Origin: Candidatus Enterousia sp.
Lineage (GTDB): Bacteria; Pseudomonadota; Alphaproteobacteria; Rs-D84
Direction of reading: 5' to 3'
Assembly (NCBI GenBank): GCA_045636045.1
Contig: JAZTWT010000011.1
Coordinates: 1 to 63,449 of the forward strand
DNA: 63,449 bases
Shown piece after piece: positions 6,890-63,028 of this stretch (position 1 is the first letter of the stretch; each line of letters starts with the position of its first letter). A program made the translations under genes and the position numbers. Under the pieces are notes generated by a model, which was not told where the DNA came from, did no database searches, and worked only from the letters and a program-made list of their open reading frames with translations.

Positions 6890-7273
6890 TTATTTTTTCT
6901 TGCAACATTTTTTTGCAGGCGCTTTCTTTGCAACTGGTTTTGCTGCAACCTTCTTTACTGCAACTTTCTTAACTGCAACTTTCTTTGCAACTGGTTTTGC
7001 AACAACTGCTTTTTTTGCAGGTGCTTTCTTTGCAACTGGTTTTGCAGCAACCTTCTTAACCGCAACTTTTTTTGCAACCGGTTTCGCAGCAACTTTTTTA
7101 ACTGCAACTTTCTTTGCAACTGGTTTTGCAACAACTGCTTTTTTTGCAGGCGCTTTCTTTGCAACAGTTTTCGCAGCAACCGCTTTTTTTGCGGGCGCTT
7201 TCTTTGCAACAGGTTTCGCAACAACTGGTTTTGCTGCTTCTACTTTTTTAGATTTTCTAAAGAAAAATCCCAT
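6890..7273 (-). CDS. Lys/Ala/Pro/Val repeat protein, histone H1-like (127 aa)
   Basis: ATG at 7273 with SD AGGAGAGAAGGA and a terminator just downstream. The sequence is almost entirely AKPVAKK / APAKKAVV / VAVKKV repeats. The underlying DNA is an imperfect tandem repeat. Confidence 0.65.
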   Translation of the reverse strand: MGFFFRKSKKVEAAKPVVAKPVAKKAPAKKAVAAKTVAKKAPAKKAVVAKPVAKKVAVKKVAAKPVAKKVAVKKVAAKPVAKKAPAKKAVVAKPVAKKVAVKKVAVKKVAAKPVAKKAPAKKCCKKK

Positions 7274-38179: not shown

Positions 38180-38279
38180 CTTTTTCCTTGTTTACCACTT
38201 GCTATGGTAGCAAACATGGAAGCATTGTCAACAAAAATATTGACAGATTTTATTTTTTGTACGCGTTGTCTTTTATTAC

Positions 38280-38298
38280 TGGTGGATGGTGAGGGATT
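38280..38298 (-). repeat. duplicate of the tRNA-Ser 3' end (att-like scar)
   Basis: TGGTGGATGGTGAGGGATT versus TGGCGGATGGTGAGGGATT at 38440-38458 (18 of 19 identical). Confidence 0.7.
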
Positions 38299-38439
38299 GG
38301 GTATTCCCATGTTCGTTTTCACTCCATGGGCCCCTTTCGCCTATGGCTCGAACCCCACGCGACTTTGTCGCTTGGGCGGGGGGTTCAAATCCGACCATCG
38401 CAACAAAAAATAAAATGCCCATTTTGGGCATTTGATTTA

Positions 38440-38529
38440 TGGCGGATGGTGAGGGATTCGAACCCCCGGTGGAGTTGCCCCCACAACGGTTTTCAAGACC
38501 GCCGCATTCGACCGCTCTGCCAACCATCC
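38440..38529 (-). tRNA. tRNA-Ser (anticodon TGA), CCA encoded
   Basis: The reverse complement reads GGATGGT..GCGGT-CTTGAAA-ACCGT..long variable arm..GGGGG-TTCGAAT-CCCTC-ACCATCC-G-CCA. Confidence 0.85.
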
Positions 38530-38643
38530 GAAACTGTTGTCCGTCGGTCTTTCAACCTACGGTTTTGGTACGTCGCTTGACTTTGTCACGCTTGTACTCC
38601 ACTTCGCTGGCGCTCGTAGTCAAGACACGCACGCCTCAACACA

Positions 38644-38667
38644 CTCTGCTAACCATCCGAAACTGTT
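38644..38667 (-). repeat. duplicate of the tRNA-Ser 5' end plus upstream flank (pseudo-tRNA fragment)
   Basis: CTCTGCTAACCATCCGAAACTGTT versus CTCTGCCAACCATCCGAAACTGTT at 38515-38538 (23 of 24 identical). The sequence 3' of it does not fold into a tRNA. Confidence 0.65.
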
Positions 38668-38700
38668 TTCCTATTTCAGTTCAACGGCGTGTATTGTACA

Positions 38701-50164: not shown

Positions 50165-50208
50165 ACCGCAAATTGTCAAACAAATCGCAAATTTTACAAA
50201 TTTAAATG

Positions 50209-50303
50209 TTTTATGATTTTTTTACTTGCGTTTGTTTTACAGATATGTATAATTGGGTGGCATTGCCGGTTTAGCTCAGCTGGTAGAGCGGCTGATTTGT
50301 AAT
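50209..50303 (+). repeat. attL: tRNA-Thr promoter plus 5' half (direct repeat of 61211-61305)
   Basis: 39 nt are identical to the 5' part of tRNA-Thr up to the anticodon loop (50265-50303 = 61267-61305). The ~55 nt upstream are colinear and partly conserved, including TATAAT. Confidence 0.8.
50265..50303 (+). pseudogene. truncated tRNA-Thr (5' 39 nt only)
   Basis: GCCGGTTTAGCTCAGCTGGTAGAGCGGCTGATTTGTAAT is followed by unrelated sequence (GAGACACC instead of CAGTAGGTC). Confidence 0.85.
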
Positions 50304-50761
50304 GAGACACCAAAGCAAAGCAGCACAATTGAAAAACATCGGATTTTCGCGGTTTTCCGCGTTTTTTTATTTCTTTTTTTGAACTGGTCGACTGTTGAAA
50401 CTTATGGTGTTTTTTGCCAAATGTTTGAATAAAATGTCCCAAATATGGACCCTATTTTTATCCCCATAAAAACACACTAAAAAACGGTCAAAAACATATC
50501 ATGAAAAAATATTTTTTATGGTCCTGTCCTGGTCCACTGACTTTCTTTTTTTTGCCACGACAACAGCCAAAATATTTTTATGGCACACTCATGCCACCAA
50601 CATGCTCAATCGCTGACACGGGCCATTTGTCGCACAGACACACGGCAAAAAAGCATTCTTTTTATCCAGGAACCAAATTTTAACCCGATATCCATAGGGG
50701 GGGTATGGGATACCGCCCCTCTGATTTTTTATATTCGTGGAATTATGAAACAAAAGAACAT

Positions 50762-51238: not shown

Positions 51239-54200
51239 TTATTCACTAATACTGAAAAAGCGTTCAAAGAATGCCACAATCTTTTCAATTACTGTTTTTT
51301 TCTTTTGGGCGCGGTTATTATCACGGTCAAACATGGACATTGGTGGCAAGATTTTGCCAATATCTGTGCCACTGGTTTGAACCGCACCATCGCGGAATGC
51401 ATTTTGAACAAACTTGTATGTTTCTTCACGGTTCAAGTTTTCTTCGGCAATTATACGGTCCAGTTCTGTGGCCTTGGCACTGTTAACAAATTTAACCCAA
51501 TCACGGTCAACAATGGTGTCAGGTGTTAAAGATGCCACGAACTGCATAATCAGGTCTTTTTTATTACGCAATTCAACACTGGAATCCACCGCCTTTTGGA
51601 TTGTTATCAAAATTTCTTTGTCATTCATGTGCGATTCATGATAACGCGCAATCAAAGACAGGATATAGTCAATATTAACGTCCACGGACTTTATCAATTC
51701 CATTTCAAAGACCACATCGTCCTTTACATTTTCTGCGGTGCCATGGGTTGGGCGCATTTCTGTATAAAGGCCGATATACATACTTTGATAATCTTGGAAT
51801 TGGCGCGGACTTAATATTTCATTGCCAGCAAACTCATCAAATGAATGCAAAATGTTCTTTACGCGCAATATTGCACCGAACAGACGCACAAATTCTTTCT
51901 TGTCGCTTTCAGACGCCAACACAATGCCCGCTTGGAATTTATCAGTTAATTCGCTTATCAGTTCGGCATAGCCCACCACATGTTTACCGTTCTTTTCATA
52001 ACCGTTATAATATTCATCATAGGTTTTCAGCAGAACCAAACCAGCCGCATCTTTGTCGCCAAACAAAGCAATACTTTCATTTGTTGCGTTTTCTAGGTTG
52101 CGGAAACACACAATATTGCCATGTGTTTTAACGGCATTCAAAATGCGGTTAGTGCGTGAAAATGCCTGCAATAAACCATGTTGGCGCAAATTCTTGTCCA
52201 CCCACAGCGTGTTTAATGTGGTGGCATCAAACCCCGTCAGGAACATATTAACCACAATAACCATATCCAATTCACGGTTTTTAATACGCAATGATAGGTC
52301 TTTGTAATAATTTGGGAATTTGGCTGCACTGGTGTCAAATGTGGTTCCAAACATTGCATTATAGTCCGCAATAGCCATGTCCAAGAAATCACGCGAACTG
52401 GCATCCAAACCGCTGGTGTCGTCACTGTTTTCATCCAGAACGCCATCCTCTTCATTTACCCCAAAACTGTAAATGGTCGCAATCTTTATCTGCTTGTCCG
52501 ATGGCAGGCCCACCATTTGGCGTTTGAATTCGTTATAATACAGTTTTGCCGCATCAATACTGGACACAGCGAACATGGAATTAAAGCCCGCCAGACGGCG
52601 TTCTTTTACCTTGTAAAAGGTATTACGCATGGTCTTTTGGTCAAAGTGTTCCAAAATATACTTTGTTATGCGACTAATGCGTTCAGGGGCCAATAATATA
52701 CCCTCGCGGTCAATGTCAGCAACCTGCTTGTCGTCAATATCTTCTGCGACACGCAGAGTTGAAACATAATCAATTTTGAACGGCAGAACATTCTTGTCAC
52801 GAATAGCATCCACAATGGTATAAGTGTGCAACTTTTGCCCGAACGCCTGTTCTGTGGTTTTCAGGTCTGGTTTGCCGCCACCCTGGGCATTGGCTGCAAA
52901 GATTGGCGTGCCTGTAAAGCCAAACAGGTGATATTTCTTGAACGACTTTGTTATAGCACTGTGCATTTCACCAAATTGGGAACGGTGGCATTCATCGAAT
53001 ATCAAAACCACATGTTGGTCAAACACAGGGTGGTCACGATGCTTTTTAATGAATGTGGACAGTTTTTGAATGGTGGTTATAATAATGCGCGCGCTGGATT
53101 CTGGACGCAATTGGCGTTCCAATACGGCGGTGCTGGTATTACTGTTGGCGGCACCTTTTTGGAAACGGTCATATTCCAACATTGTTTGATAGTCCAAGTC
53201 CTTGCGGTCAACTACAAACAAAACCTTGTCTATGTCGGTGCGTGCGCTGGCCAATTGGGCGGTTTTGAAACTGGTTAATGTTTTTCCCGAACCCGTGGTA
53301 TGCCAAATATAACCACCACCGTCAACAGTTCCCCATTTCTTATAGTTATTTGCAATTTGTATTTTGTTCAATATGCGTTCGGTGGCCACAATTTGGTATG
53401 GGCGCATAACCAGCAATTGCTGGTCCGCATTAAATACACAATACTTGGTTAAAACATTCAAAATACTGTGGCGCGCCAAGAATGTTTTTGCAAAGTCCAT
53501 CAGGTCTGTGATTGGCATATTGTTGGCGTCCGCCCACCATGATGTGAATTCAAAACTGTTGCTGGTGCGTTTGCCTGCCTTGGGGCCACGATTGGCATTT
53601 TCGTTTATGTGTGAAATGCGGGTGGTATTACTGTAATACTTGGTATATGTGCCATTTGAAATAACAAAAATCTGAACATATTCATACAGACCAGAACCCG
53701 CCCAAAAACTGTCACGCTGATAACGGTTTATTTGGTTAAAGGCCTCTTTGATATCAACGCCACGGCGTTTTAATTCCACATGCACCATTGGAATACCGTT
53801 AACCAGTATGGTCACATCATAACGATTTTCATGCACGCCTGCATCGGTTTCATATTGGTTTATAACCTGCAAGGTGTTATTGTGAATGTTTTCTTTGTCA
53901 ATCAGGTAAATATTTTTAACTGTTCCGTTGTCACGGGTTAACAACTGAATATGGTCTTCTTGGATAATGCGTGTTTTTTCACGAATGCCATTTGATTGGT
54001 TGGCAATATTCTGGGCAAAGAACCGATCCCATTCCGCATCGGTAAAGGTATATTTATTTAATTTTTCCAACTGTTGGCGCAGGTTGGCAATCAATTCGGA
54101 TTCGGTGTGAATTTTTACAGGTTCATACCCCTGGGCCCCAAGTTGTTTTATGAATGCCTGTTCTAATGCGGCCTCGGACTGATAGCGTGTTGCGCTGGTG

Positions 54201-54268
54201 TCACCTGCGCTATATTCCGCAACAACCGTTCCTTGGACATTTTGTGCAACAACATCGTATTTAACCAT
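51239..54268 (-). CDS. hsdR: type I restriction enzyme R subunit (EcoR124-like, type IC)
   Basis: 1009 aa with an N-terminal PD-(D/E)xK nuclease region (DVTILVNGIPMVHVELK), helicase motifs TGSGKT and DECHRSQ, and a long helical C-terminus. Confidence 0.92.
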   Translation of the reverse strand: MVKYDVVAQNVQGTVVAEYSAGDTSATRYQSEAALEQAFIKQLGAQGYEPVKIHTESELIANLRQQLEKLNKYTFTDAEWDRFFAQNIANQSNGIREKTRIIQEDHIQLLTRDNGTVKNIYLIDKENIHNNTLQVINQYETDAGVHENRYDVTILVNGIPMVHVELKRRGVDIKEAFNQINRYQRDSFWAGSGLYEYVQIFVISNGTYTKYYSNTTRISHINENANRGPKAGKRTSNSFEFTSWWADANNMPITDLMDFAKTFLARHSILNVLTKYCVFNADQQLLVMRPYQIVATERILNKIQIANNYKKWGTVDGGGYIWHTTGSGKTLTSFKTAQLASARTDIDKVLFVVDRKDLDYQTMLEYDRFQKGAANSNTSTAVLERQLRPESSARIIITTIQKLSTFIKKHRDHPVFDQHVVLIFDECHRSQFGEMHSAITKSFKKYHLFGFTGTPIFAANAQGGGKPDLKTTEQAFGQKLHTYTIVDAIRDKNVLPFKIDYVSTLRVAEDIDDKQVADIDREGILLAPERISRITKYILEHFDQKTMRNTFYKVKERRLAGFNSMFAVSSIDAAKLYYNEFKRQMVGLPSDKQIKIATIYSFGVNEEDGVLDENSDDTSGLDASSRDFLDMAIADYNAMFGTTFDTSAAKFPNYYKDLSLRIKNRELDMVIVVNMFLTGFDATTLNTLWVDKNLRQHGLLQAFSRTNRILNAVKTHGNIVCFRNLENATNESIALFGDKDAAGLVLLKTYDEYYNGYEKNGKHVVGYAELISELTDKFQAGIVLASESDKKEFVRLFGAILRVKNILHSFDEFAGNEILSPRQFQDYQSMYIGLYTEMRPTHGTAENVKDDVVFEMELIKSVDVNIDYILSLIARYHESHMNDKEILITIQKAVDSSVELRNKKDLIMQFVASLTPDTIVDRDWVKFVNSAKATELDRIIAEENLNREETYKFVQNAFRDGAVQTSGTDIGKILPPMSMFDRDNNRAQKKKTVIEKIVAFFERFFSISE

Positions 54269-54284
54269 TTTTCACCCCTGTATT

Positions 54285-55475
54285 TTATGCCGCCATTGGG
54301 AACGACAATAATTTATCCCGATAATATTCATACTGTTGACGGCGTGCGTTTATTTCCGCAGGCAACCCATCAGATATATCATTTACCAACGCATCAAATT
54401 TATCCAAAATCGCAACAATTCGTTCCTGTTCCGCAAGTGGGGGAATTGGGATTTGCATCATCAAAACGGACTTCATTGTCGGATGCTGAATTCCAGCACC
54501 TTTATAAAAAGTTTTTAATGTATCGATATTATTTGAAAGCCAATAAAATAAAAATTTATTATTCAAAACGTCTGTATCATTGGATGTGGCAATTCTATTG
54601 TCCGATGTGACAAACTTTCCTTTATGGTATTTAACATTTGGTGTCCCGCCCCAAGGAATCGCAACCACCTCGCCATCACACAAATGTTTTCCTGCCAAAC
54701 ATTCAGTTGTATAGCCGCTTTTCCCTATTCCTGTCCCCAACAAACGAACATCGCCATTTTCGCACTCTAATGAGTTCATGTCTTTGGCTAACAAATATGG
54801 GTATTTTATTATTTTATTTTGCATATGCTTTTCAACCCCATTAAATCTTTTGTCCCACGATGTTATTTCCCACAGAGCCATTGTTCTTACCCCCCCCTGT
54901 GAAATATCAGCAAAATTCAATAACTTATCACGATAGTGTTCATATTGTTTTTTTCTTGCCTCCAGTTCTGCCTCCAGTTCTGCCTCCAGTTCTGTAAAGG
55001 AGTCCAGAATACGAACAATTTCCTGCTGAACTGGCAATGGCGGGATTAACACCTCTACCTTTGCCATAACATTACTCATTAACTTTGGGTTCCCCATACC
55101 TGCATTAACATATTTTTTTGCAACTGCGCCCAAAGCATAATGCAAATATTTAACGTCAATATCGTCCATCATTATCTGCAACAACCCACAAACATTTGTT
55201 ATACTAAATTTCCCAGTTCTGTAAAATACAGAACCTGCATTAGCACCATCAGTCGTCCATGTTAAATATTCACCATCGTAATCGAATGTGTTTATCTGCC
55301 CCAACATACCATTGTTTACAGTTTGACTTGAATAAACAGGATACTCTCCATAATTATCACGCAAATAATCCTTGGACATAACCCTGCCACGAGATATTTT
55401 ACAAATATCACCAATGCACACCTGTTTCACCCCATTCGGGCAATATTTGGCAATTAAGTCGGTTATTTTTGACAT
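54285..55475 (-). CDS. hsdS: type I restriction enzyme S (specificity) subunit
   Basis: Two TRDs are separated by conserved helices (LPVQQEIVRILDSFTELEAELEAELEARKKQYEHYRDKLL and LAEQERIVAILDKFDALVNDISDGLPAEINARRQQYEYYRDKLL). Confidence 0.9.
   Translation of the reverse strand: MSKITDLIAKYCPNGVKQVCIGDICKISRGRVMSKDYLRDNYGEYPVYSSQTVNNGMLGQINTFDYDGEYLTWTTDGANAGSVFYRTGKFSITNVCGLLQIMMDDIDVKYLHYALGAVAKKYVNAGMGNPKLMSNVMAKVEVLIPPLPVQQEIVRILDSFTELEAELEAELEARKKQYEHYRDKLLNFADISQGGVRTMALWEITSWDKRFNGVEKHMQNKIIKYPYLLAKDMNSLECENGDVRLLGTGIGKSGYTTECLAGKHLCDGEVVAIPWGGTPNVKYHKGKFVTSDNRIATSNDTDVLNNKFLFYWLSNNIDTLKTFYKGAGIQHPTMKSVLMMQIPIPPLAEQERIVAILDKFDALVNDISDGLPAEINARRQQYEYYRDKLLSFPMAA
54958..54993 (-). repeat. 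3 x 12-bp perfect tandem repeat inside hsdS (encodes ELEAELEAELEA)
   Basis: GCCTCCAGTTCT occurs three times on the plus strand, in the central coiled-coil spacer of HsdS. Confidence 0.9.
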
Positions 55476-56080
55476 TGGTCACCTCCCTCTGGGGCTTGCA
55501 GTTCACTTGCAAACAAATCACGAAGTTTTTTATCAGATTTACAAACGTCTGCATGTTCTTTTACATATTCAAAACTTTTCATAACATCGTGTTTCATTTG
55601 ACCAGAATTTAATGCGCCATTACAATCCAAACGAATATAACTTTCATTGGTATAATCCAGCGGTTTTTCAAAAAACATTTTCAATTCATCATAAAAGAAA
55701 TACAGTTTATCTTGAATGGCACTTGAAAAAAACAACTCGGATTCTTGGCATGTATTCAACATGCGTTTCAACAACAAAGAAACAGTTTTTGCATTTAATG
55801 TTTCAATTTCAATCAAACTGATTGTATGCAAAATATCATAAAATTCTGTATAAACTTTTAACTTATATGGATATTCTGCCGACCATTTGCGCATTTTTTC
55901 ATCCGCATCTGCATTTTTACGCTGTTCGATTAAATCTTTTTTACGAATATGATGTTGCCACCACAAAGTCCCGACTGTTGCAAAAATCGATACCCCCAAC
56001 GCAATCCAAGCAACCCAATCAATGCCAGAATTTTGGACCGTGATAACATCGTTAATTAAATGGGTTTGAACGGGTTCCAT
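55463..56080 (-). CDS. hypothetical membrane-anchored protein embedded between hsdM and hsdS (orf205)
   Basis: Its ATG overlaps the hsdM stop (TAATG at 56078-56082), and its stop lies 13 nt inside hsdS. It has one TM segment (WVAWIALGVSIFATVGTLWW) and a ~150-aa helical soluble part. Confidence 0.6.
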   Translation of the reverse strand: MEPVQTHLINDVITVQNSGIDWVAWIALGVSIFATVGTLWWQHHIRKKDLIEQRKNADADEKMRKWSAEYPYKLKVYTEFYDILHTISLIEIETLNAKTVSLLLKRMLNTCQESELFFSSAIQDKLYFFYDELKMFFEKPLDYTNESYIRLDCNGALNSGQMKHDVMKSFEYVKEHADVCKSDKKLRDLFASELQAPEGGDQCQK

Positions 56081-57639
56081 TATTCATCCCCCTGTAAATC
56101 TGCAACAATTGCATCAATTTGGGTACGCAATACGCTTTGACGGGCAACAATGTCGCCAATGCGTGCATTCAGTTCGTTTATATCGATTTTTTCACGCGTA
56201 TCGGGCTGTTCAACATATGTGGATACAGACAGGTTATAATCATTTTCCGCAACATCGGTGTTATTTACCAATTTGGCAAAGTGTTCCATATCTGCGCGCC
56301 CAATAAACGCTTTCAATATTGTTTCAATGTTTTCATCGGATAATTTATTCTTGTTCCCAGAATGCACAAATTGGTTGCCCGCATCAATAAACAGAATGTC
56401 ATTGTCCGCCTTGTTTTTCTTTAACACGATAATACATGTTGCGATTGTCACCCCAAAGAACAGGTTTGCGGGCAACTGAATAATGCAATCTACATAATTG
56501 TTATCAACCAAGTATTTACGGATTTTCTGTTCTGCACCACCACGATACAGCACACCAGGGAATTCAACAATTGCCGCCGTGCCAGATGCCGACAACCACG
56601 ACAGCATATGCATTGTGAACGCAAGGTCCGATTTGCCGCGTGGTGCCAATACGCCCGCAGGTGCAAAGCGTGGGTCGTTTATTAACAGTGGATTATCATC
56701 GCCATCCCATGGAATTGAATAAGGTGGGTTAGATACAATCGCATCAAATGGCTCTTCATCCCAATGTTTCGGTTCCAACAATGTGTCGCCATGTGCAATA
56801 TTAAACTTTTCATAATTGATATTATGCAGGAACATGTTAATGCGACACAGGTTATATGTGGTTATGTTCTTTTCCTGGCCAAAAAATCCCTGACGCACGC
56901 CATTTTGCCCCAATATTTTTGCAAACTTTAACAATAATGAACCCGAACCACATGCAGGGTCATAAACCTTGTTAACCTCGGTCTTACCCACCAGGGTTAT
57001 TTTTGCAAGCAGTTCTGATACCTCCTGCGGGGTAAAGAATTCACCACCAGATTTACCCGCATTGCTGGCATACATGGTCATAAGATATTCATACGCATCA
57101 CCAAAGGCATCAATACTGTTGTCTGTAAAATTCCCCAAGTCCAAACCAGCAATGGCGTCTAATATTTTTACCAGTTTTTTGTTTCTTTCTGGGACGGATG
57201 CACCCAATTTATTACTGTTCACATCAATGTCGTCAAACAAGCCACGGAAATCATCTTCACTTTCTGCACCAATGGCGGAATTTTCAATATTTGCAAATAC
57301 GGCAGCCAATGTTTCATTCAGGTTGGCATCTGCCTTGGCCGTGCGTTGGATATTTACAAACAATTCAGACGGCAGGATAAAGAACCCTTTGGATTCAATA
57401 CATTCATTGCGTGCGATTTCTGCGCTGGCATCGTTCAGGTTGGCATAACTGAAATCTTTATTACCAGCGGCATGTTCGTTTTTATCAATATAGTGCGCAA
57501 TATTTTCGGATATAAAGCGATAAAATAAAAAGCCCAATACATATGCTTTGAAATCCCAACCGTCAACCGCACCACGCAAATCGTTTGCAATCTGCCATAT
57601 AACACGGTGCAATTCCGCTCTTTCCTGTTCGCGCGCCAT
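56080..57639 (-). CDS. hsdM: type I restriction enzyme M subunit (N6-adenine methyltransferase)
   Basis: N-terminus [40 protein letters not shown] motif [11 protein letters not shown] and the NPPY motif (SNPPYS). ATG 57639 has an AGGGG SD, and an upstream in-frame ATG lies at 57654. Confidence 0.92.
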
Positions 57640-57657
57640 TATAAACCCCTGCATTTG

Positions 57658-57689
57658 AAAAAATTAAACCACCGAACAAAGCGGTGGTT
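57658..57689 (-). terminator. terminator-like hairpin at the 3' end of the hsdM leader RNA
   Basis: The RNA reads AACCACCG-CUUUGUU-CGGUGGUU followed by UAAUUUUUU. It ends ~20-35 nt before the hsdM ATGs. Confidence 0.55.
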
Positions 57690-57837
57690 GGAGGTTCACA
57701 ACTATTATGCATTGAAAATAGCGGGCTTATTCAATATATTCACCGCCCTCCAACCATACAGATTGGAGGTATTTTTTGTCCCCACGGACACAATGCATAA
57801 AAGGGTTGTGACGCCCAACACAGCAACCGCCATGTCA
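57690..57837 (-). ncRNA. structured RNA leader / ncRNA, copy 1 (upstream of hsdM)
   Basis: Promoter TTGATT (57867-57872), 17 nt, then TAGTAT (57844-57849). The nested helices are supported by compensatory differences from copy 2, and the 40-nt core 57716-57755 is identical to 61710-61749. Confidence 0.55.
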
Positions 57838-57874
57838 TTGCATATACTACAACAAAAAATGACAAAAATCAAAT

Positions 57875-57892
57875 CCCACCTGTTAAGGTGGG
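57875..57892 (-). terminator. rho-independent terminator of the int-xis-wHTH module
   Basis: On the minus strand, CCCACC-TTAACA-GGTGGG is followed by ATTTGATTTTT. Confidence 0.6.
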
Positions 57893-58133
57893 TGGGGGGA
57901 TGGTATTGTTATATGGTATGTGAATAACATGTGTTGGCTTGTTGATTAGTTTATTCATCAGTGTTGTTATTGGTTTACTATCTCCACATGGTATATATCT
58001 ATATAATGTCCCTGATATGTGACCGCACTTTTTGCAAAAAACAGCAAAACGGTCCCCCAAATGTGACCGAGCCACATTTGCATATGGCATTTGTGGCTCC
58101 GTGTCGTGACTTGATGGCTTTATTTTGAGCCAC

Positions 58134-58562
58134 CTAATCCTGTGGTGGATTTTCAAGAAAGTTGTCGCCAACTTTCCATTTTTTCCACTCGTTTGATGGA
58201 CGATTTTCACCCTTGTTTTTGTCGGTGTTTAATTTCCACGCGCTGGCAACATTTCCACCATTTGCGAAATATCCCAATCGGGTTTGTGTTATAAAACCCT
58301 TTTGCTGCAATTCTTGGAACGCTCTGCCAGCTGTGTTGCGACTCATCGGACACGCTTTTGCCACATCGCGACACGACAAACAGATATCGCCATTATTAAC
58401 GCCATTAAATCTGCGTTTTAACAACACTAATACGCGCATACCTGCATGAGACAAGTGCTGAAACGCCATCGAATCCACCAGTTGGAATGACAGGGCGCAA
58501 AAGCGTTCTTTTGCACTCTCGCGTCCAAACAGGCGACAGTTTGCTTTAACTTTTTTTGCCAT
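58134..58562 (-). CDS. winged-helix DNA-binding protein (island regulator or replication-initiator-like)
   Basis: Start MAKKVKANCRLF at 58562. The segment ..CLSCRDVAKACPMSRNTAGRAFQELQQKGFI.. is wHTH-like. Confidence 0.5.
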   Translation of the reverse strand: MAKKVKANCRLFGRESAKERFCALSFQLVDSMAFQHLSHAGMRVLVLLKRRFNGVNNGDICLSCRDVAKACPMSRNTAGRAFQELQQKGFITQTRLGYFANGGNVASAWKLNTDKNKGENRPSNEWKKWKVGDNFLENPPQD

Positions 58563-58714
58563 GTTCGTCACCCGTGTCGTTTTGCTGCAACAACTGCATG
58601 AAATGCAATTGCACTGGTTTTTGATGTTGCACAACGGCAATGTCGTTGTTATTATTGGATTGGTTTGTTATTAAATCCGTGATATGTGTCGCGGATTTTT
58701 CTTTTTTATTCATT

Positions 58715-58945
58715 TTACACTCCTTTTTTTGTTCTGCCTGTGGATGATGGATTGGTGGCAACCCATTGAAAAAATTTGACCTCATCAATCAAAACCTTGG
58801 CCCCAACACGGTGGATTACCCCCATGTCATCTAATCCATTGAACGGGCGGTGAAATACCAGGTCCCTGATGCTGCCCTCAGAAAATGCAGGGTGTTTTTT
58901 TGCGAACTGTTTAACAGTTAAATAATGCGGAATGTCATTTGACAT
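58715..58945 (-). CDS. excisionase / AlpA-like HTH protein
   Basis: 76 aa. The pattern YLTVKQFAKKHPAFSEGSIRDLVF....NGL is MerR-type HTH_17-like. It lies in the int-proximal module. Confidence 0.55.
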   Translation of the reverse strand: MSNDIPHYLTVKQFAKKHPAFSEGSIRDLVFHRPFNGLDDMGVIHRVGAKVLIDEVKFFQWVATNPSSTGRTKKGV

Positions 58946-59159
58946 CTTTTCCCCTTTTTTGTTGTTCTTGTTAACTTAACGCAAATTGCTTTTGCCTGCT
59001 GAAAATGTGCGACAATTAAATTTGGATAACAACTGCAAGCAATCTGCTTGCAGTTTGTGCGCAAACCCACAGTGGGCGTGGGGTTAAGACATATGAACTT
59101 TTTTTCAAAAAAACAAACCACGACGAATCGTGGTTTTCCAAAAATGGCGTTTTTTATGG

Positions 59160-59858
59160 TTATTGACGTTCAAACGCGGACTGTTTTGCCGCACGCTTTT
59201 TTGCCGCGTTTTGGGTGGCTAATGCAGCCAATTTAAGTATCGTCCCACCATACATGCCACATTCCTTACGGTTTCTAATAGAAAACGCAAACATATAATC
59301 CACAATATAAAAAATTGCGGCAATATACATGTCTTCTGGGGTGGCGTTAAATTTGTTTATAAACCAGCGTCTGCGCTGGGTTATTAGTGTTTTGGATGCG
59401 GCGGGCGCAACAACATTTTCTTTTAGTGCCGCATGCTTATCTTTTGTACGCAGCAAATCCACTTTTGTTTTACCTCTTGTCGTTGGTTTTCGCTTGGCCG
59501 CAGGGATATATTTGCCCACCAATTCAGCATCGCGATTTGATAAAACAGACAATAACACTAACTGCAACATATGCGGCAGATCTAAAATGTTTGTATTTAC
59601 CAATTGCGAACGACTTGCTGTGCTACCCCTTAAAATTTCTGTGTTTTCTATCAAATCACACATTGTATCCATTAAATACTGCAACCGCTTTTGTTGCTCG
59701 GGGGTAAAGCTTATTTGCTGTGGCACCACGACCTTATCGTCTGGGAAAAGCATATTATGCGATTGCAACACTGCCTCATTTACGCCAAAACCCACAAATT
59801 CAGGGCAGTGTTTCATTACGTCATGATATTGCTTTATTGTCAATTTGCGATATTTCAT
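59160..59858 (-). CDS. hypothetical island protein (232 aa)
   Basis: Its ATG overlaps the integrase stop (ATGA). No motif recognised. Confidence 0.5.
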   Translation of the reverse strand: MKYRKLTIKQYHDVMKHCPEFVGFGVNEAVLQSHNMLFPDDKVVVPQQISFTPEQQKRLQYLMDTMCDLIENTEILRGSTASRSQLVNTNILDLPHMLQLVLLSVLSNRDAELVGKYIPAAKRKPTTRGKTKVDLLRTKDKHAALKENVVAPAASKTLITQRRRWFINKFNATPEDMYIAAIFYIVDYMFAFSIRNRKECGMYGGTILKLAALATQNAAKKRAAKQSAFERQ

Positions 59859-60913
59859 TCCGCACCACCAAATATTTTTGCGTTCATACTGGCCACGACA
59901 CTGCTTTTATGTGCATTGGACAGGTGTGCATACCGCTTTACCATGGAAAGCGTTTTATGCCCCAAGACATCTGCGATTTCATTTGGGCTGGCACCATTCA
60001 TTGCCAAATAACTGGCACAGGTGTGGCGCAAATCATGAAATCTAAAATCATGCAAACCTGCCTTGGCTACCACGGTTGCCCAACTGCGTTTTATTTCGCA
60101 TGGCCCCGAATTTTTATCGTTTGGAAATACCCATACGTCGGACTTACGCTTTTCATATAACTGGCGCACCAAATCTAATGCAGGTCCCCATAAGGGCAGA
60201 CCACGCATTTCACCGTTCTTGGTATGTTCTAATACTGCCCACCCCTTGTCCAAATCAATATTATCCCAACGAAGGGACAATATCTCGCCACGTCTGGCAC
60301 CAGTTGAAATTGCCAGCACGATGATGGCATACAAATCCTTGTTTTTTGAATCCTTGGCTGCTGCCAATAGGCGTTCGCGCTCCACATCACTTAAAAAGCG
60401 TGTACGACCACGACTTTCGCGTTTGTGTTCAACACGAGCCACTGGGTTTACATCTATCCACCCCAACGACTTTATTCCATAAGCCAACGCACAACTTAAT
60501 GCGGCCAAATACCTGTTTAATGTCGCTGCACTTTTTGGTCTATTGCCATATTGGATTGCGGCAATCCGTTCAAGTGCACTGGTTATGATTGCAGGCGTCA
60601 AAGAATATAACCTGGTCGCACCAATAAACTTTTCCCATTCATCCAACTGTGTGGTGAGTGTTTTTATGGAACGCAACCCGTTATCTTCAATATGCCGCTT
60701 ATATCGGTCTAACAATTCACTGAATGTGCGATTGCGTGCATTTGTGTTTGGCATGTGTTTTTGATCGCGCATTTCCGTTTCGGTTTTCACGGCCCATTCA
60801 CGCGCCAATGTTTTACTGGAAAATGTTGCTGTTTGAATAAGGTTTCCCTCTACACGAACACGCGCTCTATATCGAACACCAGATTTGGTCATTCTTTTTT
60901 CAATCGTTGCCAT
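59855..60913 (-). CDS. int: tyrosine site-specific integrase
   Basis: Catalytic motifs are present: TGARRGE, HDLRHTCASYLAMNG and LGHKTLSMVKRYAHL. Confidence 0.92.
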   Translation of the reverse strand: MATIEKRMTKSGVRYRARVRVEGNLIQTATFSSKTLAREWAVKTETEMRDQKHMPNTNARNRTFSELLDRYKRHIEDNGLRSIKTLTTQLDEWEKFIGATRLYSLTPAIITSALERIAAIQYGNRPKSAATLNRYLAALSCALAYGIKSLGWIDVNPVARVEHKRESRGRTRFLSDVERERLLAAAKDSKNKDLYAIIVLAISTGARRGEILSLRWDNIDLDKGWAVLEHTKNGEMRGLPLWGPALDLVRQLYEKRKSDVWVFPNDKNSGPCEIKRSWATVVAKAGLHDFRFHDLRHTCASYLAMNGASPNEIADVLGHKTLSMVKRYAHLSNAHKSSVVASMNAKIFGGAE

Positions 60914-61210
60914 CAGTTTTTTCCTTGTTTTCTGAGAGTTTACAACAACTTACAACAAATGTCAAAAAGATACCATAGATTCTAAATCAGAGGAACTGTC
61001 TGCTGACACCCGCAGAAATCTTGGAGATATTTTGAACGCGACAAAAAAATGGTCCAGTTTTGGTCCACAAAGACAAAATACCATGCCACAAAAGTGTCAA
61101 AAAACCGATGCTTTCAGAGTAAAAATCCTGCACCCCATTTTTACCGAAAATTATTGCAGCGTTTTGATGTCCATGTCCCAAATTTGGACCATTTTAACAT
61201 TTTTATTCAC

Positions 61211-61305
61211 TTTTATGATTTTTTTGCTTGCGTTGCCCCCCACAATATGTATAATTGTGGGGCAACGCCGGTTTAGCTCAGCTGGTAGAGCGGCTGATTT
61301 GTAAT
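61211..61305 (+). repeat. attR: island-borne promoter plus 5' half of the functional tRNA-Thr
   Basis: Direct repeat of 50209-50303. TATAAT lies at the equivalent position upstream of the tRNA. Confidence 0.8.
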
Positions 61306-61342
61306 CAGTAGGTCGTTGGTTCAAGTCCGACAACCGGCACCA
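61267..61342 (+). tRNA. tRNA-Thr (anticodon TGT), CCA encoded
   Basis: GCCGGTT-TA-GCTC-AGCTGGTA-GAGC-G-GCTGA-TTTGTAA-TCAGT-AGGTC-GTTGG-TTCAAGT-CCGAC-AACCGGC-A-CCA. Confidence 0.9.
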
Positions 61343-61355
61343 TGTTTGACTTAGC

Positions 61356-61402
61356 CCCCTGAAATTCGCTTAACATCTTGAAAATTGGCGCGATTTCAGG
61401 GG
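61356..61402 (+). terminator. hairpin plus T-rich tract after tRNA-Thr
   Basis: CCCCTGAAAT ... ATTTCAGGGG forms a 10-bp stem with a 27-nt loop, followed by TTCTAAATTTTTCTTTTTT. Confidence 0.5.
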
Positions 61403-61632
61403 TTCTAAATTTTTCTTTTTTGTCGTATGATAATTTGCCTGGAAAATAAATATTTAGAACCGCTCGACGTAAAGAAAGGTCGGCATCATGCCAAACGTTC
61501 AATAGGGAACCTGCGACCGTCAAAACAATATCAAAAAATCAACCCCGACATAATTCTATTTTTACCAAGTTTTCCTTGGTTTTTATTCATATAAAGTTTG
61601 TTTTTACCACGTTTTTATGATATAATTTCCGC

Positions 61633-61846
61633 TGACACAGGCGACTGTGTTGGGCGTTACAACCCATAACATTAGGTGTCCGTGGGAACAAAAAATACCT
61701 CTAACCATTGGTTGGAGGGCGGTGAATATATTGAATAAGCCCGCTATTTCCTAATGTTATAGTTGTAAACCTCCAGCCACCAATCATTGCTGCGCAAACG
61801 TGGCGAATATGCACGTCTGTGGAAAATGCAGTCCGGTGGATTTTTA
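61633..61846 (+). ncRNA. structured RNA leader / ncRNA, copy 2 (upstream of the HExxH protein gene)
   Basis: Promoter TTGTTT (61598-61603), 17 nt, then TATAAT (61621-61626). The homologous core 61645-61782 is followed by a longer 3' region ending in GGTGGATTTTT (61836-61846). Confidence 0.5.
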
Positions 61847-61870
61847 CAGGAATAATAAAAAGGACAATGA

Positions 61871-63028
61871 ATGAAAAAAGAAAGCGTACCGCAAAAATTA
61901 AACAAAAAAAGCATTCAGGAAATTAACTATGAAAAATTCCTTGAATATAAAAAGAGCCTGTCTAAAGACGATCAGATAGCTGCTTCTATTATTAGCGCAG
62001 CAGTCAAAAATTATACCCTTGGCTGTATGCAGAAATTAGAAGATGCAGAACAATTTGTATTGGGCCCAGTTGCATACCGCGCGGAATTCGCAAAGGAACT
62101 AGAAATAATCCATAAGGATAATAAAAACGTTATGGTAAACTTATTAAAGAAAAATTTTGGAATCGACACCCAGGATTTCGAATTTTTATGGGATCTGTAC
62201 GGACAAACAGAATTATATAACAGATTAAAAATGGCTGTCGCCAAAGATAAGCACCGGCCACGAAATATGCAGTTTTGGGAATTTGTCGCCAGCCCTGACT
62301 TAGAATATGTCGGTGGCGAGTTTTCAACATTTGATAGAAATTTAGCACTAAAAAAATTAAAGAAAACTGCAAAATTTAGTCAAGCCCAAGCTAAATTAGG
62401 TGGTAAAAAAGTTCCCAGTATGGACGAAATAATTGGCGATGCAATATCAGGAACGCCAAAAAATATATACGAGGCCACACTAGATAAGTTTGATGCATTC
62501 TTCAAAATGTATGAACAATCCGACTTAAAAAAAGTGCATGCAGACATTGTGAAACAAGGCGTAAAGTTTGATGCCGATGAATACTCAATGCTGCTAACAC
62601 TGCTGGTCCAAAATATGGCACACAAACAAGGGATAAAAAACGACGTTGCCTATGTGATAATTTCAGATGACTTGAGCTTTGATAGCGAGGCTTTTGGCAA
62701 GTACAGCAGAGAATACATCCCTGAACTTAACGCAGAACGCGGATTTATCGCCATTAACCGCAATTTGCTTCATAAAGCAATTGCAACGCAAGTAAAAGAC
62801 AAACAAATCCAAAATGAAATCCTGTTCACCGAAATTCTATCAATCGTGATGCACGAATATTCTCATCATGTTGACGTTATGGCACCAAACAAAGGGGCCG
62901 TTGGCGCGCAAAAAATGAATCTGTCGCAAATGACCGAAGAAAAATCAGAAAATGATCCATCGGAATGTTCAGCATATACTTTTTCCGAATTTATAAGGGG
63001 CAAACTTACTCAAGCCCAGAACGACTAA
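61871..63028 (+). CDS. hypothetical protein with a zincin HExxH motif (385 aa)
   Basis: ATG at 61871. The only recognisable feature is IVMHEYSHHVD near the C-terminus. Confidence 0.5.
   Translation: MKKESVPQKLNKKSIQEINYEKFLEYKKSLSKDDQIAASIISAAVKNYTLGCMQKLEDAEQFVLGPVAYRAEFAKELEIIHKDNKNVMVNLLKKNFGIDTQDFEFLWDLYGQTELYNRLKMAVAKDKHRPRNMQFWEFVASPDLEYVGGEFSTFDRNLALKKLKKTAKFSQAQAKLGGKKVPSMDEIIGDAISGTPKNIYEATLDKFDAFFKMYEQSDLKKVHADIVKQGVKFDADEYSMLLTLLVQNMAHKQGIKNDVAYVIISDDLSFDSEAFGKYSREYIPELNAERGFIAINRNLLHKAIATQVKDKQIQNEILFTEILSIVMHEYSHHVDVMAPNKGAVGAQKMNLSQMTEEKSENDPSECSAYTFSEFIRGKLTQAQND

Follow-up and report, generated by a model that had tools for sequence, protein, structure and literature searches.

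A putative two-state terminator in a leader RNA family found in front of hsdM and other genes of uncultured gut Alphaproteobacteria

On the minus strand of the 63,449-nucleotide (nt) stretch of Candidatus Enterousia sp. DNA analysed here (contig JAZTWT010000011.1, below called the window), about 175 nt without a conserved open reading frame (ORF) separate a promoter from the terminator hairpin in front of hsdM, which raises the question of what this region does. The element (copy 1) spans positions 57872-57658 and consists of the promoter, a structured RNA of about 175 nt and an intrinsic terminator, followed by hsdM; a second copy (copy 2), inverted relative to the first, lies on the plus strand. 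Sequence comparison and modelling suggest that the element is a cis-acting, conditional two-state transcription terminator, built as a self-contained promoter-leader-terminator cassette and governed by a trans-acting effector, for which the hairpin P5 would be the likeliest site. We assign this reading a probability of about 0.55. The leader probably acts as an on/off control for genes of surface proteins, mobile elements and defence and, judged by the searches described below, is a member of a previously undescribed, widespread leader RNA family of uncultured gut Alphaproteobacteria. The RNA family is new; competition between terminator and antiterminator in a leader is a classical type of mechanism. 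What distinguishes the element is a swap of three helices with covariation for both states, the portable promoter-leader-terminator format, the occurrence of short-unit arrays and the use in front of island defence cargo.

All coordinates are positions in the window, and L-numbers denote loci carrying relatives of the leader, numbered in this analysis. The two alternative structures discussed below are called fold A and fold B. The parts of copy 1, all on the minus strand, are:

57844-57872, minus strand: promoter, with TTGATT at 57872-57867, a 17-nt spacer and TAGTAT at 57849-57844, by sequence reading
57817-57836, minus strand: P0, the hairpin at the 5' end, GACAUGGC-GGUU-GCUGUGUU, from the minimum-free-energy fold
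57816-57814, minus strand: G1 (GGG), which would pair with C57805-C57803 to form hairpin H1 of fold B
57812-57805, minus strand: 5' strand of P1b, GUCACAAC, located in the H1 loop in fold B
57804-57803, minus strand: C0 (CC), part of the 3' arm of H1
57791-57800, minus strand: 5' strand of P2, UUAUGCAUUG, with its partner at 57714-57705
57777-57790, minus strand: P3, an optional variable hairpin, UGUCC-GUGG-GGACA, with covarying pairs
57747-57769, minus strand: P4, composed of C1 (CCUCCAAUC, 57769-57761), a loop and G2 (GGUUGGAGG, 57755-57747)
57721-57746, minus strand: P5, stem GCGG/CCCGC with the near-invariant 17-nt loop UGAAUAUAUUGAAUAAG at 57742-57726
57702-57721, minus strand: Hd, a hairpin of fold B, CUAU (57721-57718) with AUAG (57705-57702)
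57714-57705, minus strand: 3' strand of P2, CAAUGCAUAA, within the Hd loop in fold B
57702-57694, minus strand: 3' strand of P1b, GUUGUGAAC, from covariation
57694-57686, minus strand: X, CCUCCAACC, the putative fold-B partner of G2, sharing nucleotides with the terminator 5' arm
57658-57689, minus strand: intrinsic terminator, AACCACCG-CUUUGUU-CGGUGGUU followed by UAAUUUUUU, the highest-ranked terminator-like site of the region
56080-57654, minus strand: hsdM (Pfam N6_Mtase, 1.8e-115, and HsdM_N), the ORF opening at 57654

Sequence reading confirmed the coordinates that a preliminary description, made from the sequence alone, had given for the promoter, the upstream terminator, the terminator hairpin and hsdM. 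The promoter scores below the 9/12 cut-off of the consensus promoter scan. The terminator hairpin proper (AACCACCG/CGGTGGTT) covers 57689-57667 and its T-tract extends to 57658, and a separate terminator at 57892-57875 lies upstream of the element. The likelier start of hsdM is the ATG at 57639, which is preceded by the Shine-Dalgarno (SD) sequence AGGGG at 57650-57646. In both window copies the gene begins 20-35 nt past the terminator.

Comparison of the two window copies indicates that they share one RNA structure. The parts of copy 2, on the plus strand, are:

61618-61845, plus strand: whole element including the promoter, of which 61635-61845 is the leader
61618-61626, plus strand: promoter, an extended -10 element TGATATAAT by sequence reading, at a position that fits the family-wide -10 peak
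61635-61650, plus strand: P0, followed by G1 at 61652-61654, from fold and alignment
61656-61663 with 61762-61770, plus strand: P1b
61666-61676 with 61750-61760, plus strand: P2
61698-61706, plus strand: C1
61710-61718, plus strand: G2
61723-61739, plus strand: P5 loop
61744-61747 with 61759-61762, plus strand: Hd
61770-61778, plus strand: X
61777-61781 (CCACC) with 61835-61839 (GGUGG), then UUUUU at 61841-61845, plus strand: terminator with a 53-nt insert in its loop
61871-63028, plus strand: downstream ORF of 385 amino acids (aa) with an HExxH motif

The likeness of the copies is far beyond chance. A block of 41 nt is identical (57716-57756 = 61709-61749), one nucleotide longer than the shared core of 40 nt first reported, and a second shared block of 29 nt has 93% identity. 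With filters off, the covariance model R2 detects just these two copies in the 63 kb window (E = 6e-17 and 1e-16); copy 2 scores 153.9 bits with model R1 and 78.8 bits with R2. P2 is UUAUGCAUUG/CAAUGCAUAA in copy 1 and AUAACAUUAGG/CCUAAUGUUAU in copy 2, which are unrelated sequences and complementary in both cases. Complementarity is also kept in P1b, with GUCACAAC/GUUGUGAC in copy 1 versus GUUACAAC/GUUGUAAC in copy 2, and C1 reads CCUCCAAUC or CCUCUAACC, each facing GGUUGGAGG. Both copies share a multi-helix minimum-free-energy fold with z = -4.5 and -3.65 against dinucleotide shuffles, and none of 200 such shuffles was as stable. Copy 2 is chromosomal and lies 300 nt downstream of a tRNA-Thr gene; the 385-aa ORF behind it has the SD sequence AAGGA and an ATG 26 nt past the T-tract, and matches no known family.

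The element had been called an unclassified structured RNA, and the database searches agree. Against Rfam 15 the whole window gave three tRNAs only at gathering score, nothing overlapped either copy at E≤10 in the region 57400-62100, and in five related loci the element stayed unmatched at E≤1. BLASTN of copy 1 against plasmids and phages and an exact 31-mer search of viral contigs gave no match, and a full-text literature search (core sequences, Enterousia, RF32 riboswitches) returned nothing relevant on RNA. The preliminary description had proposed looking for copies in related genomes and metagenomes; this yielded about 120 further copies overall, from pattern scans and the two covariance models, in which the helices are maintained. 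When one genome per species was searched for a 21-nt word of the core, 36 loci turned up, nearly all in alphaproteobacterial metagenome-assembled genomes (MAGs) from animal or human guts, labelled 'Candidatus Enterousia' or 'Alphaproteobacteria bacterium' with one each of Rhodospirillaceae, Rickettsiales and Muribaculaceae. In these loci and the window together, model R1 recognised 48 units, some of them additional, diverged copies without the search word. A looser pattern scan of metagenomes added 68 units and viral contigs added four; 92 distinct units were left once near-duplicates were removed. A sequence near 58030 resembling the Haemophilus uptake signal sequence, AAGTGCGGT, had hinted at Pasteurellaceae, an origin that was rejected on the genome-scan matches, almost all of which are MAGs of gut Alphaproteobacteria.

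The family members share a fixed order of parts. P0 is followed by G1 (GGG(G)), the P1b 5' strand, C0 (CCC), the P2 5' strand, the optional P3 and an A-rich linker; then come C1 (CUCCAACC), a loop, G2 (GGUUGGAG(G)), the P5 stem around UGAAUAUAUUGAAUAAG, CUAU and the P2 3' strand, and finally (U)AUAG, the P1b 3' strand, X (CCUCCAACC) and the terminator. Fold A has a four-way junction from which P3, P4 (C1:G2) and P5 project and which is closed by P1b and P2; X is unpaired. The claim that the helices are kept by covariation held in the model-based alignment of the 48 units: 87.4% of the cells are paired, versus about 44% (38-47%) in controls with the partner columns shifted by 1-3 positions; changes on both sides are seen in 43 of 50 pairs, and 0 of 500 shuffles reach the observed values. 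In the same alignment every pair covaries in P0 (93.9% paired, double changes at all 7 pairs), P1b (93%, all 8 pairs), P3 (88.5%, all 5 pairs) and the terminator helix, and P4 is 92.8% paired. The P5 stem, which is identical in both window copies, covaries across the family, and P3 is missing in L013, L036 and L026. Fold A is the minimum-free-energy structure in all inspected sequences and in 83 of the 92 distinct units, and the minimum-free-energy fold of 83/92 units has a P2 of at least 5 base pairs (bp). An own-versus-cross duplex comparison for P2 and P1b gave a weak contrast with imprecise sequence windows (-11.6 vs -8.8 kcal/mol), and the minimum-free-energy census and column counts were used in its place. 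Docking of P3 onto P5 through a GNRA tetraloop and its receptor was considered and rejected on the heterogeneity of the P3 loops, of which just 12/75 are GNRA.

Fold B uses the same strands differently: the hairpins H1 and Hd replace P1b and P2, and G2, which pairs with C1 in fold A, pairs with X. The preliminary description had recognised the antiterminator/terminator layout, and the rearrangement is larger than it supposed, H1 and Hd being additional to the exchange of G2. Its 'enclosing helix', in which the 5' GGG pairs with X, did not survive: GGG pairs locally, in H1. That helix of GGG with the CCU of X (P1a) does occur in minimum-free-energy folds and shows no covariation in the L023, L029, L016 and L020 types, whereas H1 covaries. 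In H1, G1 pairs with C0 and the P1b 5' strand lies within the loop; the helix is 90% paired with GC, AU, GU and UA pair types, and the variants GAGG/CCUC, GUGG/CCAC, UAGG/CCUA and GCGAG/CUCGC keep the pairing. Hd has at least 4 bp in 92/92 non-redundant units (mean 5.7 bp, loop about 8 nt). Its arms occur in about 10 complementary types, including GCUAU/AUAGU, ACAAUU/AAUUGU, GACUG/CAGUU, UGCAAA/UUUGCG and GGGAU/AUUUC (GAUA/UAUC when read by eye), and its pair 43-60 is UA in 18 and AU in 16 cases.

The alternative pairing of GGUUGGAGG with a downstream CCUCCAACC that overlaps the terminator, proposed earlier for copy 1, holds for the family. G2:X is 98.9% paired in 42 diverse sequences, and the pair at its inner end is GC in 27, UG in 7, UA in 6 and AU in 2. 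This pair covaries with X and not with the P4 partner: where the G2 base after GGAG is U or A, X has the matching A/G or U, and the C1 base is often mismatched (U.U or A.A). Since the G2:X pair tracks X and not C1, the antiterminator helix is selected in its own right and is no mere by-product of the likeness between X and C1. Variant G2 lineages (GGGGAG, GGUCAGGAG, GGGAUUGGAGG, GGGGUCGGA and GGGGUUGGAU) carry a matching X, and in 10/12 variant G2 classes the pairing with the class's own X is 0.5-8.5 kcal/mol better than that with the canonical X. In short units without the 5' half (L016:803, L017:7416) the minimum-free-energy structure is a three-way junction of G2:X, P5 and Hd. A simple parser located the terminator in 52 units; in 48 of them X and the terminator 5' arm have at least 3 nt in common, most often 5-7 nt. 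With X sequestered, the predicted stability of the terminator hairpin falls from -9.1 to -1.6 kcal/mol. Taken across the alignments, folds A and B are mutually exclusive and both sets of helices act as evolutionary constraints; the putative antiterminator overlaps the terminator, and the cassette always precedes a gene. From geometry, Hd and P2 should not coexist, as the linkers are only 0-3 nt long, and simultaneous pseudoknots of H1 with P1b or Hd with P2 were judged sterically implausible on the same linker lengths.

The arrangement points to action in cis. A -10-like hexamer stands at a fixed distance from the first hairpin in 87/101 units, with a sharply peaked position, and a T-run follows the last hairpin in 111/116. 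The element had been described as the leader of a downstream gene, which fits 94 of the 102 units with sufficient sequence behind them (about 92%): in 80 a same-strand ORF with an SD sequence begins no more than 150 nt downstream, and in 14 the next feature is another unit. Of the remaining eight, at least one stands before a very short ORF. From the U-tract to the start codon the distance is 15-45 nt across the family, which leaves no room for another promoter. Tabulation of the genes behind each match, also proposed in the preliminary description, gave a heterogeneous set of proteins. Among 76 distinct downstream proteins, 52 have an N-terminus that resembles a signal peptide or is transmembrane. 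Pfam matches are to XRE-type helix-turn-helix proteins, Listeria-Bacteroides repeats, OMP beta-barrel, Bro-N, Mrr nuclease and hsdM; there are also secreted Cys-rich proteins, and one unit precedes an ABC exporter. In two IMG/VR contigs (L157:8500-13200 and L160:5200-10414) the leader is situated directly past a prophage lysis module and a pair of minus-strand genes that encode a PLD-family nuclease and a DNA methyltransferase. The gene behind the leader encodes a secreted 316-aa protein in L157 and the ABC exporter in L160.

These observations lead to the following proposed course of events. Transcription would start a few bases past the -10 box, at the foot of P0, and the next 150 nt or so would adopt fold A or fold B. 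In fold A, the predicted ground state and presumed OFF state, X would be free, so that the terminator AACCACCG/CGGUGGUU with its U-tract could form; polymerase would stop 20-35 nt before hsdM and release an RNA of about 180 nt. In fold B the H1 loop, closed by GGG:CCC, would lock the P1b 5' strand and the Hd loop, closed by CUAU:AUAG, the P2 3' strand, and G2 would leave C1 for X, consuming the first 3-7 nt of the terminator 5' arm. Read-through would then reach hsdM - ORF205 - hsdS - hsdR or, at copy 2, the 385-aa gene. A trans-acting effector would select the fold, its likeliest site being P5, where 5'-UGAAUA stands opposite GAAUAAG-3'. We infer that switching takes place in vivo, that fold A is the OFF state, that an effector exists and that it binds P5. 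The balance leans towards an RNA-binding protein over a small molecule because of the repeated GAAUA motif, the decoy-like arrays and the lack of a gene set that would indicate a ligand.

P5 is the sole long, sequence-conserved part of the RNA that does not switch, and for this reason it is the best candidate for a recognition site. In copies outside the search pattern its loop reads (N)GAAUA-[2-6 nt or inserted hairpin]-(G/A)AAUA(A/G), a hairpin being inserted in the middle of the loop in some copies, which suggests that the loop is an irregular helix with UGAAUA opposite GAAUAAG. The complement of the loop has no credible partner elsewhere in the window, and readings as a K-turn, a loop-E motif or an 11-nt receptor did not fit on inspection. 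Two to eight units in the same orientation occur at L020, L022, L033, L016, L017/L115, L062 and L069. At L069:168-563 five contiguous short units, each with a P4 hairpin, P5 and Hd, follow one another with no promoter, terminator or ORF between them, and two full leaders and an XRE-type gene come next. Every C segment of this array can pair with the preceding or the following G, so that the array is predicted to be bistable too, and a layout resembling a sponge is seen in L069, L062 and L115. In addition, tandem leaders (two to four) stand before a conserved gene for a protein of 84-92 aa at L020:4185-4664, L022:600-1069, L033:809-1279 and L062:149-1034. Its consensus, ...EYPAPLI.KL..FY...P.Y.TGIV.I..LAR..HTELDKF..RPHKQVT...FD..., matches no family, and its place behind multiple leaders makes the protein a candidate for an autoregulated component of the system.

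Several observations weigh against a conditional terminator set by an effector at P5. The predicted stability of fold B falls short of that of fold A by 11.5 kcal/mol on average, so that termination would be the default and read-through would need a strong effector or kinetic control. Both search patterns included part of the P5 loop, which makes its apparent invariance partly a sampling effect, and the unbiased view of the loop comes from 15-20 copies found by the model alone. Beyond P5 and the C/G segments there is little nucleotide conservation and the P3 loops are heterogeneous, hence a conventional ligand pocket at the junction is not evident; nor do the downstream genes suggest a ligand through any shared theme of metabolism or transport. 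Each long unit in the arrays has its own promoter and terminator, which is compatible with free-standing small RNA (sRNA) genes. The main rival, in our estimate an unlikely one, retains the two-state attenuator and changes the effector, making the leader a small-molecule or second-messenger riboswitch with the four-way junction or the P5/three-way-junction domain as aptamer. The multi-helix junction, the highly conserved irregular hairpin and the classic terminator/antiterminator competition would suit a riboswitch, as would the mutually exclusive expression platform with G2:X on the terminator 5' arm. Cyclic di-GMP-I riboswitches occur in many copies and in tandem before heterogeneous secreted or surface-protein and phage or mobile-element genes, often with terminators, and the present leader resembles them (GEMM-I) in copy number, tandem units and the secreted/surface-protein and mobile-element genes behind it. 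The resemblance is in use and not in structure: there is no match to RF01051 even at E≤10, and the four-way junction has no conserved tetraloop-receptor. Moreover, no class of biosynthesis, transport or degradation genes names a ligand, conservation is concentrated in P5 rather than in the junctions, whose strands are poorly conserved, P3 is dispensable, the short-unit arrays have no expression platform, the predicted gap between the folds is large for ligand energy alone, and nothing in Rfam points to a known aptamer.

Explanations that dispense with a switch fare worse. That the terminated RNA of about 180 nt and the short-unit arrays form a free-standing sRNA family acting in trans, by anti-Shine-Dalgarno pairing through CCUCC(AACC) or as a protein-titrating sponge on repeated P5 loops, with read-through incidental, seems quite improbable. 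A promoter and a strong terminator for each unit, tandem units such as the five contiguous ones of L069 with no gene between, and conserved CCUCC segments with a repeated loop, reminiscent of multi-copy alphaproteobacterial sRNAs and of CsrB/RsmZ, are all as such a family would have them. Against this, a gene or a further unit lies ahead of some 92% of the units, too close to have a promoter of its own, neither of the supported folds leaves X free beyond its last bases, and selection for a G2:X helix that overlaps the terminator would be purposeless in a pure trans-acting sRNA; the two functions do not exclude each other, as terminated leaders could act in trans too. Still less probable is a constitutive cassette, in which a strong promoter, a stabilising 5' structure and a leaky terminator would fix a low, constant ratio of short RNA to mRNA, as the terminator between toxI and toxN does in type III toxin-antitoxin loci. 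Fold A is indeed far more stable than fold B, no effector was found, and the element looks portable, standing before unrelated genes and island cargo. That H1, Hd and G2:X, helices of fold B only, have been kept intact by compensatory changes in distant lineages would be difficult to understand if fold B were never used. We regard as very improbable that the element works as DNA, as a miniature inverted-repeat mobile element, a Correia/BOX/REP-like repeat, a recombination site or an operator. It is multi-copy and intergenic, has imperfect inverted ends (GUUGGG...CCAAC) and variable unit numbers, and the window copies are inverted around the integrase region. Yet at least six helices show compensatory differences that random drift does not produce, with P2 unrelated between the copies; G-U pairs are tolerated on one strand only (21 bits for the reverse strand versus 80); promoter and terminator keep fixed positions and a fixed orientation to the downstream gene; and the hairpin inserted in the conserved loop preserves an RNA structure and not a DNA palindrome. 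The same compensatory, strand-specific and oriented character sets it apart from the members of those repeat families. An integron attC site was considered, as GTTGGGC fits GTTRRRY; it was dismissed on the wrong polarity of the core sites and on stems that covary as RNA.

Among described regulatory leaders, the closest in logic are riboswitch platforms and attenuators of the trp, pT181 and pIP501 types with their 1:2 / 2:3 / 3:4 pairing. As in these, a cis leader carries a terminator just before the start codon, and G2 pairs with upstream C1 or with X in the terminator region, both alternatives being conserved. Unlike these, the present leader has no leader peptide and no conserved antisense promoter, and three helices are exchanged (P1b to H1, P2 to Hd, P4 to G2:X) instead of one. 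A mini-ORF in copy 1, AUG-GUU-GGA-GGG-CGG-UGA (MVGGR*), was rejected as a leader peptide: it has no SD sequence, and the start codon is missing in L002, L024, L015, L029, L006 and L007. An antisense sigma-70-like promoter (TTGAAA-17-TATATT, 57712-57740, plus strand, 10/12), with its -10 box in the palindromic part of the P5 loop, is probably fortuitous, its -35 box being unconserved in other members. The protein-dependent leaders of TRAP, PyrR, HutP, BglG/SacY-RAT and ANTAR and the CsrA/CsrB-RsmZ system also have a motif repeated in a hairpin, here GAAUA...GAAUA. Similar to the target-plus-decoy organisation of CsrB-RsmZ, the same hairpin occurs in terminator leaders and in short-unit arrays that may be decoys. 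The motifs themselves differ, as there are no GGA loops (the repeated loop motif is GAAUA...GAAUAAG), (G/U)AG or UAG repeats, RAT sequences or paired ANTAR hexaloops, the terminator-adjacent hairpins being Hd, with a variable loop of about 8 nt, and P5, with a loop of 17 nt. A T-box is not indicated either, with no Rfam T-box match and downstream genes unrelated to amino acids.

The lambda pR'-tR' '6S' leader with Q, and the put and EAR elements, share with the present cassette a constitutive promoter that gives a short terminated RNA unless read-through into cargo or late genes occurs, and a position at the head of horizontally acquired operons. Those systems modify the polymerase and need no pairing with the terminator, whereas here the antiterminator helix overlaps the terminator and is under selection; Rfam gave no EAR match in the window. 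The selected pairing with the terminator argues that processive antitermination is at least not the sole mechanism. Type III toxin-antitoxin loci show the same order of promoter, repeated structured RNA, terminator and ORF, and their terminator sets the ratio of RNA to protein. Here the downstream ORFs are mutually unrelated, most loci have one long unit, and no ToxN/AbiQ-like family was found by Pfam among the downstream proteins.

A conditional terminator of this kind would have consequences beyond the locus. Tentatively, the leader may be the sensor of a previously unknown circuit of these uncultured gut Alphaproteobacteria with reduced genomes, based on a riboswitch of a new class for a signalling molecule or on an unrecognised RNA-binding antiterminator protein whose decoys would be the short-unit arrays. 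The circuit would co-regulate surface and secreted proteins, mobile-element regulators and anti-phage cargo, and islands would connect their defence cargo to it by carrying a copy of the host leader. Both conformations are recorded independently by comparison, with six helices, three per state, which is rarely documented and offers a clean model for the evolution of bistable leaders. The cassette would define a clade-wide regulon, standing before dozens of secreted proteins that otherwise defy annotation, before XRE regulators and before island-borne restriction systems. These gut Alphaproteobacteria are known only from metagenomes, and we know of no description of their gene regulation. The invariant P5 hairpin could serve as bait for the effector and so reveal the signal used to remodel surface and defences, and the covariance models mark the starts of cargo operons in islands that integrate at tRNA-Thr.

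Copy 1 itself lies within such an island of about 11 kb, integrated in tRNA-Thr and bounded by a diverged repeat of about 100 nt (50208-50306 and 61212-61308). The repeat starts with the promoter of tRNA-Thr and continues through the 5' half of the tRNA as far as the anticodon loop, and the intact tRNA-Thr(UGU) gene (61267-61342) is at the integrase end. The promoter and 5' part of the tRNA-Thr gene thus seem to be contributed by the island; in the usual arrangement, integration restores the 3' end of the tRNA gene. All island genes are on the minus strand, in the order integrase, 232-aa ORF, 76-aa ORF, winged-helix protein, 73-aa ORF and leader, followed by hsdM, a 205-aa ORF, hsdS, hsdR and a DUF805 protein. 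The genes named by function upstream of the leader are:

59855-60913, minus strand: tyrosine integrase
58134-58640, minus strand: winged-helix protein with weak similarity to the phage replication initiator O

The operon hsdM - 205-aa ORF - hsdS - hsdR covers 51239-57654, with hsdM first (Pfam Methylase_S, HSDR_N and EcoR124_C for the other genes). The loci L011, L014 and L032 carry the same island. In L031, L025 and L035 an integrase with 48% identity and the 76-aa ORF, which is conserved beside related integrases, lie upstream of the same leader, and the cargo behind it differs: a Mrr-type nuclease in L031 and a lipoprotein in L035, L025 ending within the leader. In this family of tRNA-Thr islands the cargo operon thus begins with the leader.

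Some smaller features of the window were noted alongside. The 205-aa ORF (55463-56080, minus strand) lies between hsdM and hsdS and overlaps both with its ends; it has no match in Pfam, NCBIfam or PHROGs, an identical copy in L014 and no counterpart in the related island L032. The 73-aa ORF (57869-58090, minus strand), with the SD sequence GGAG and a CxxC...C motif, ends within the terminator hairpin just upstream of the leader promoter and is weakly conserved in L032. Outside the island, the tRNA-Ser(UGA) gene (38440-38529, minus strand) has both its ends copied in short direct repeats of 86-93% identity, one on each side (38271-38298 / 38431-38458 and 38515-38542 / 38644-38671), which other integrative elements may have left as scars or used as att sites. 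Finally, a 127-aa ORF (6890-7273, minus strand) contains 15-nt periodic repeats (GCAACNGGTTTTGCNGCAAC...) and would encode a Lys/Ala-rich repeat protein resembling histone H1.

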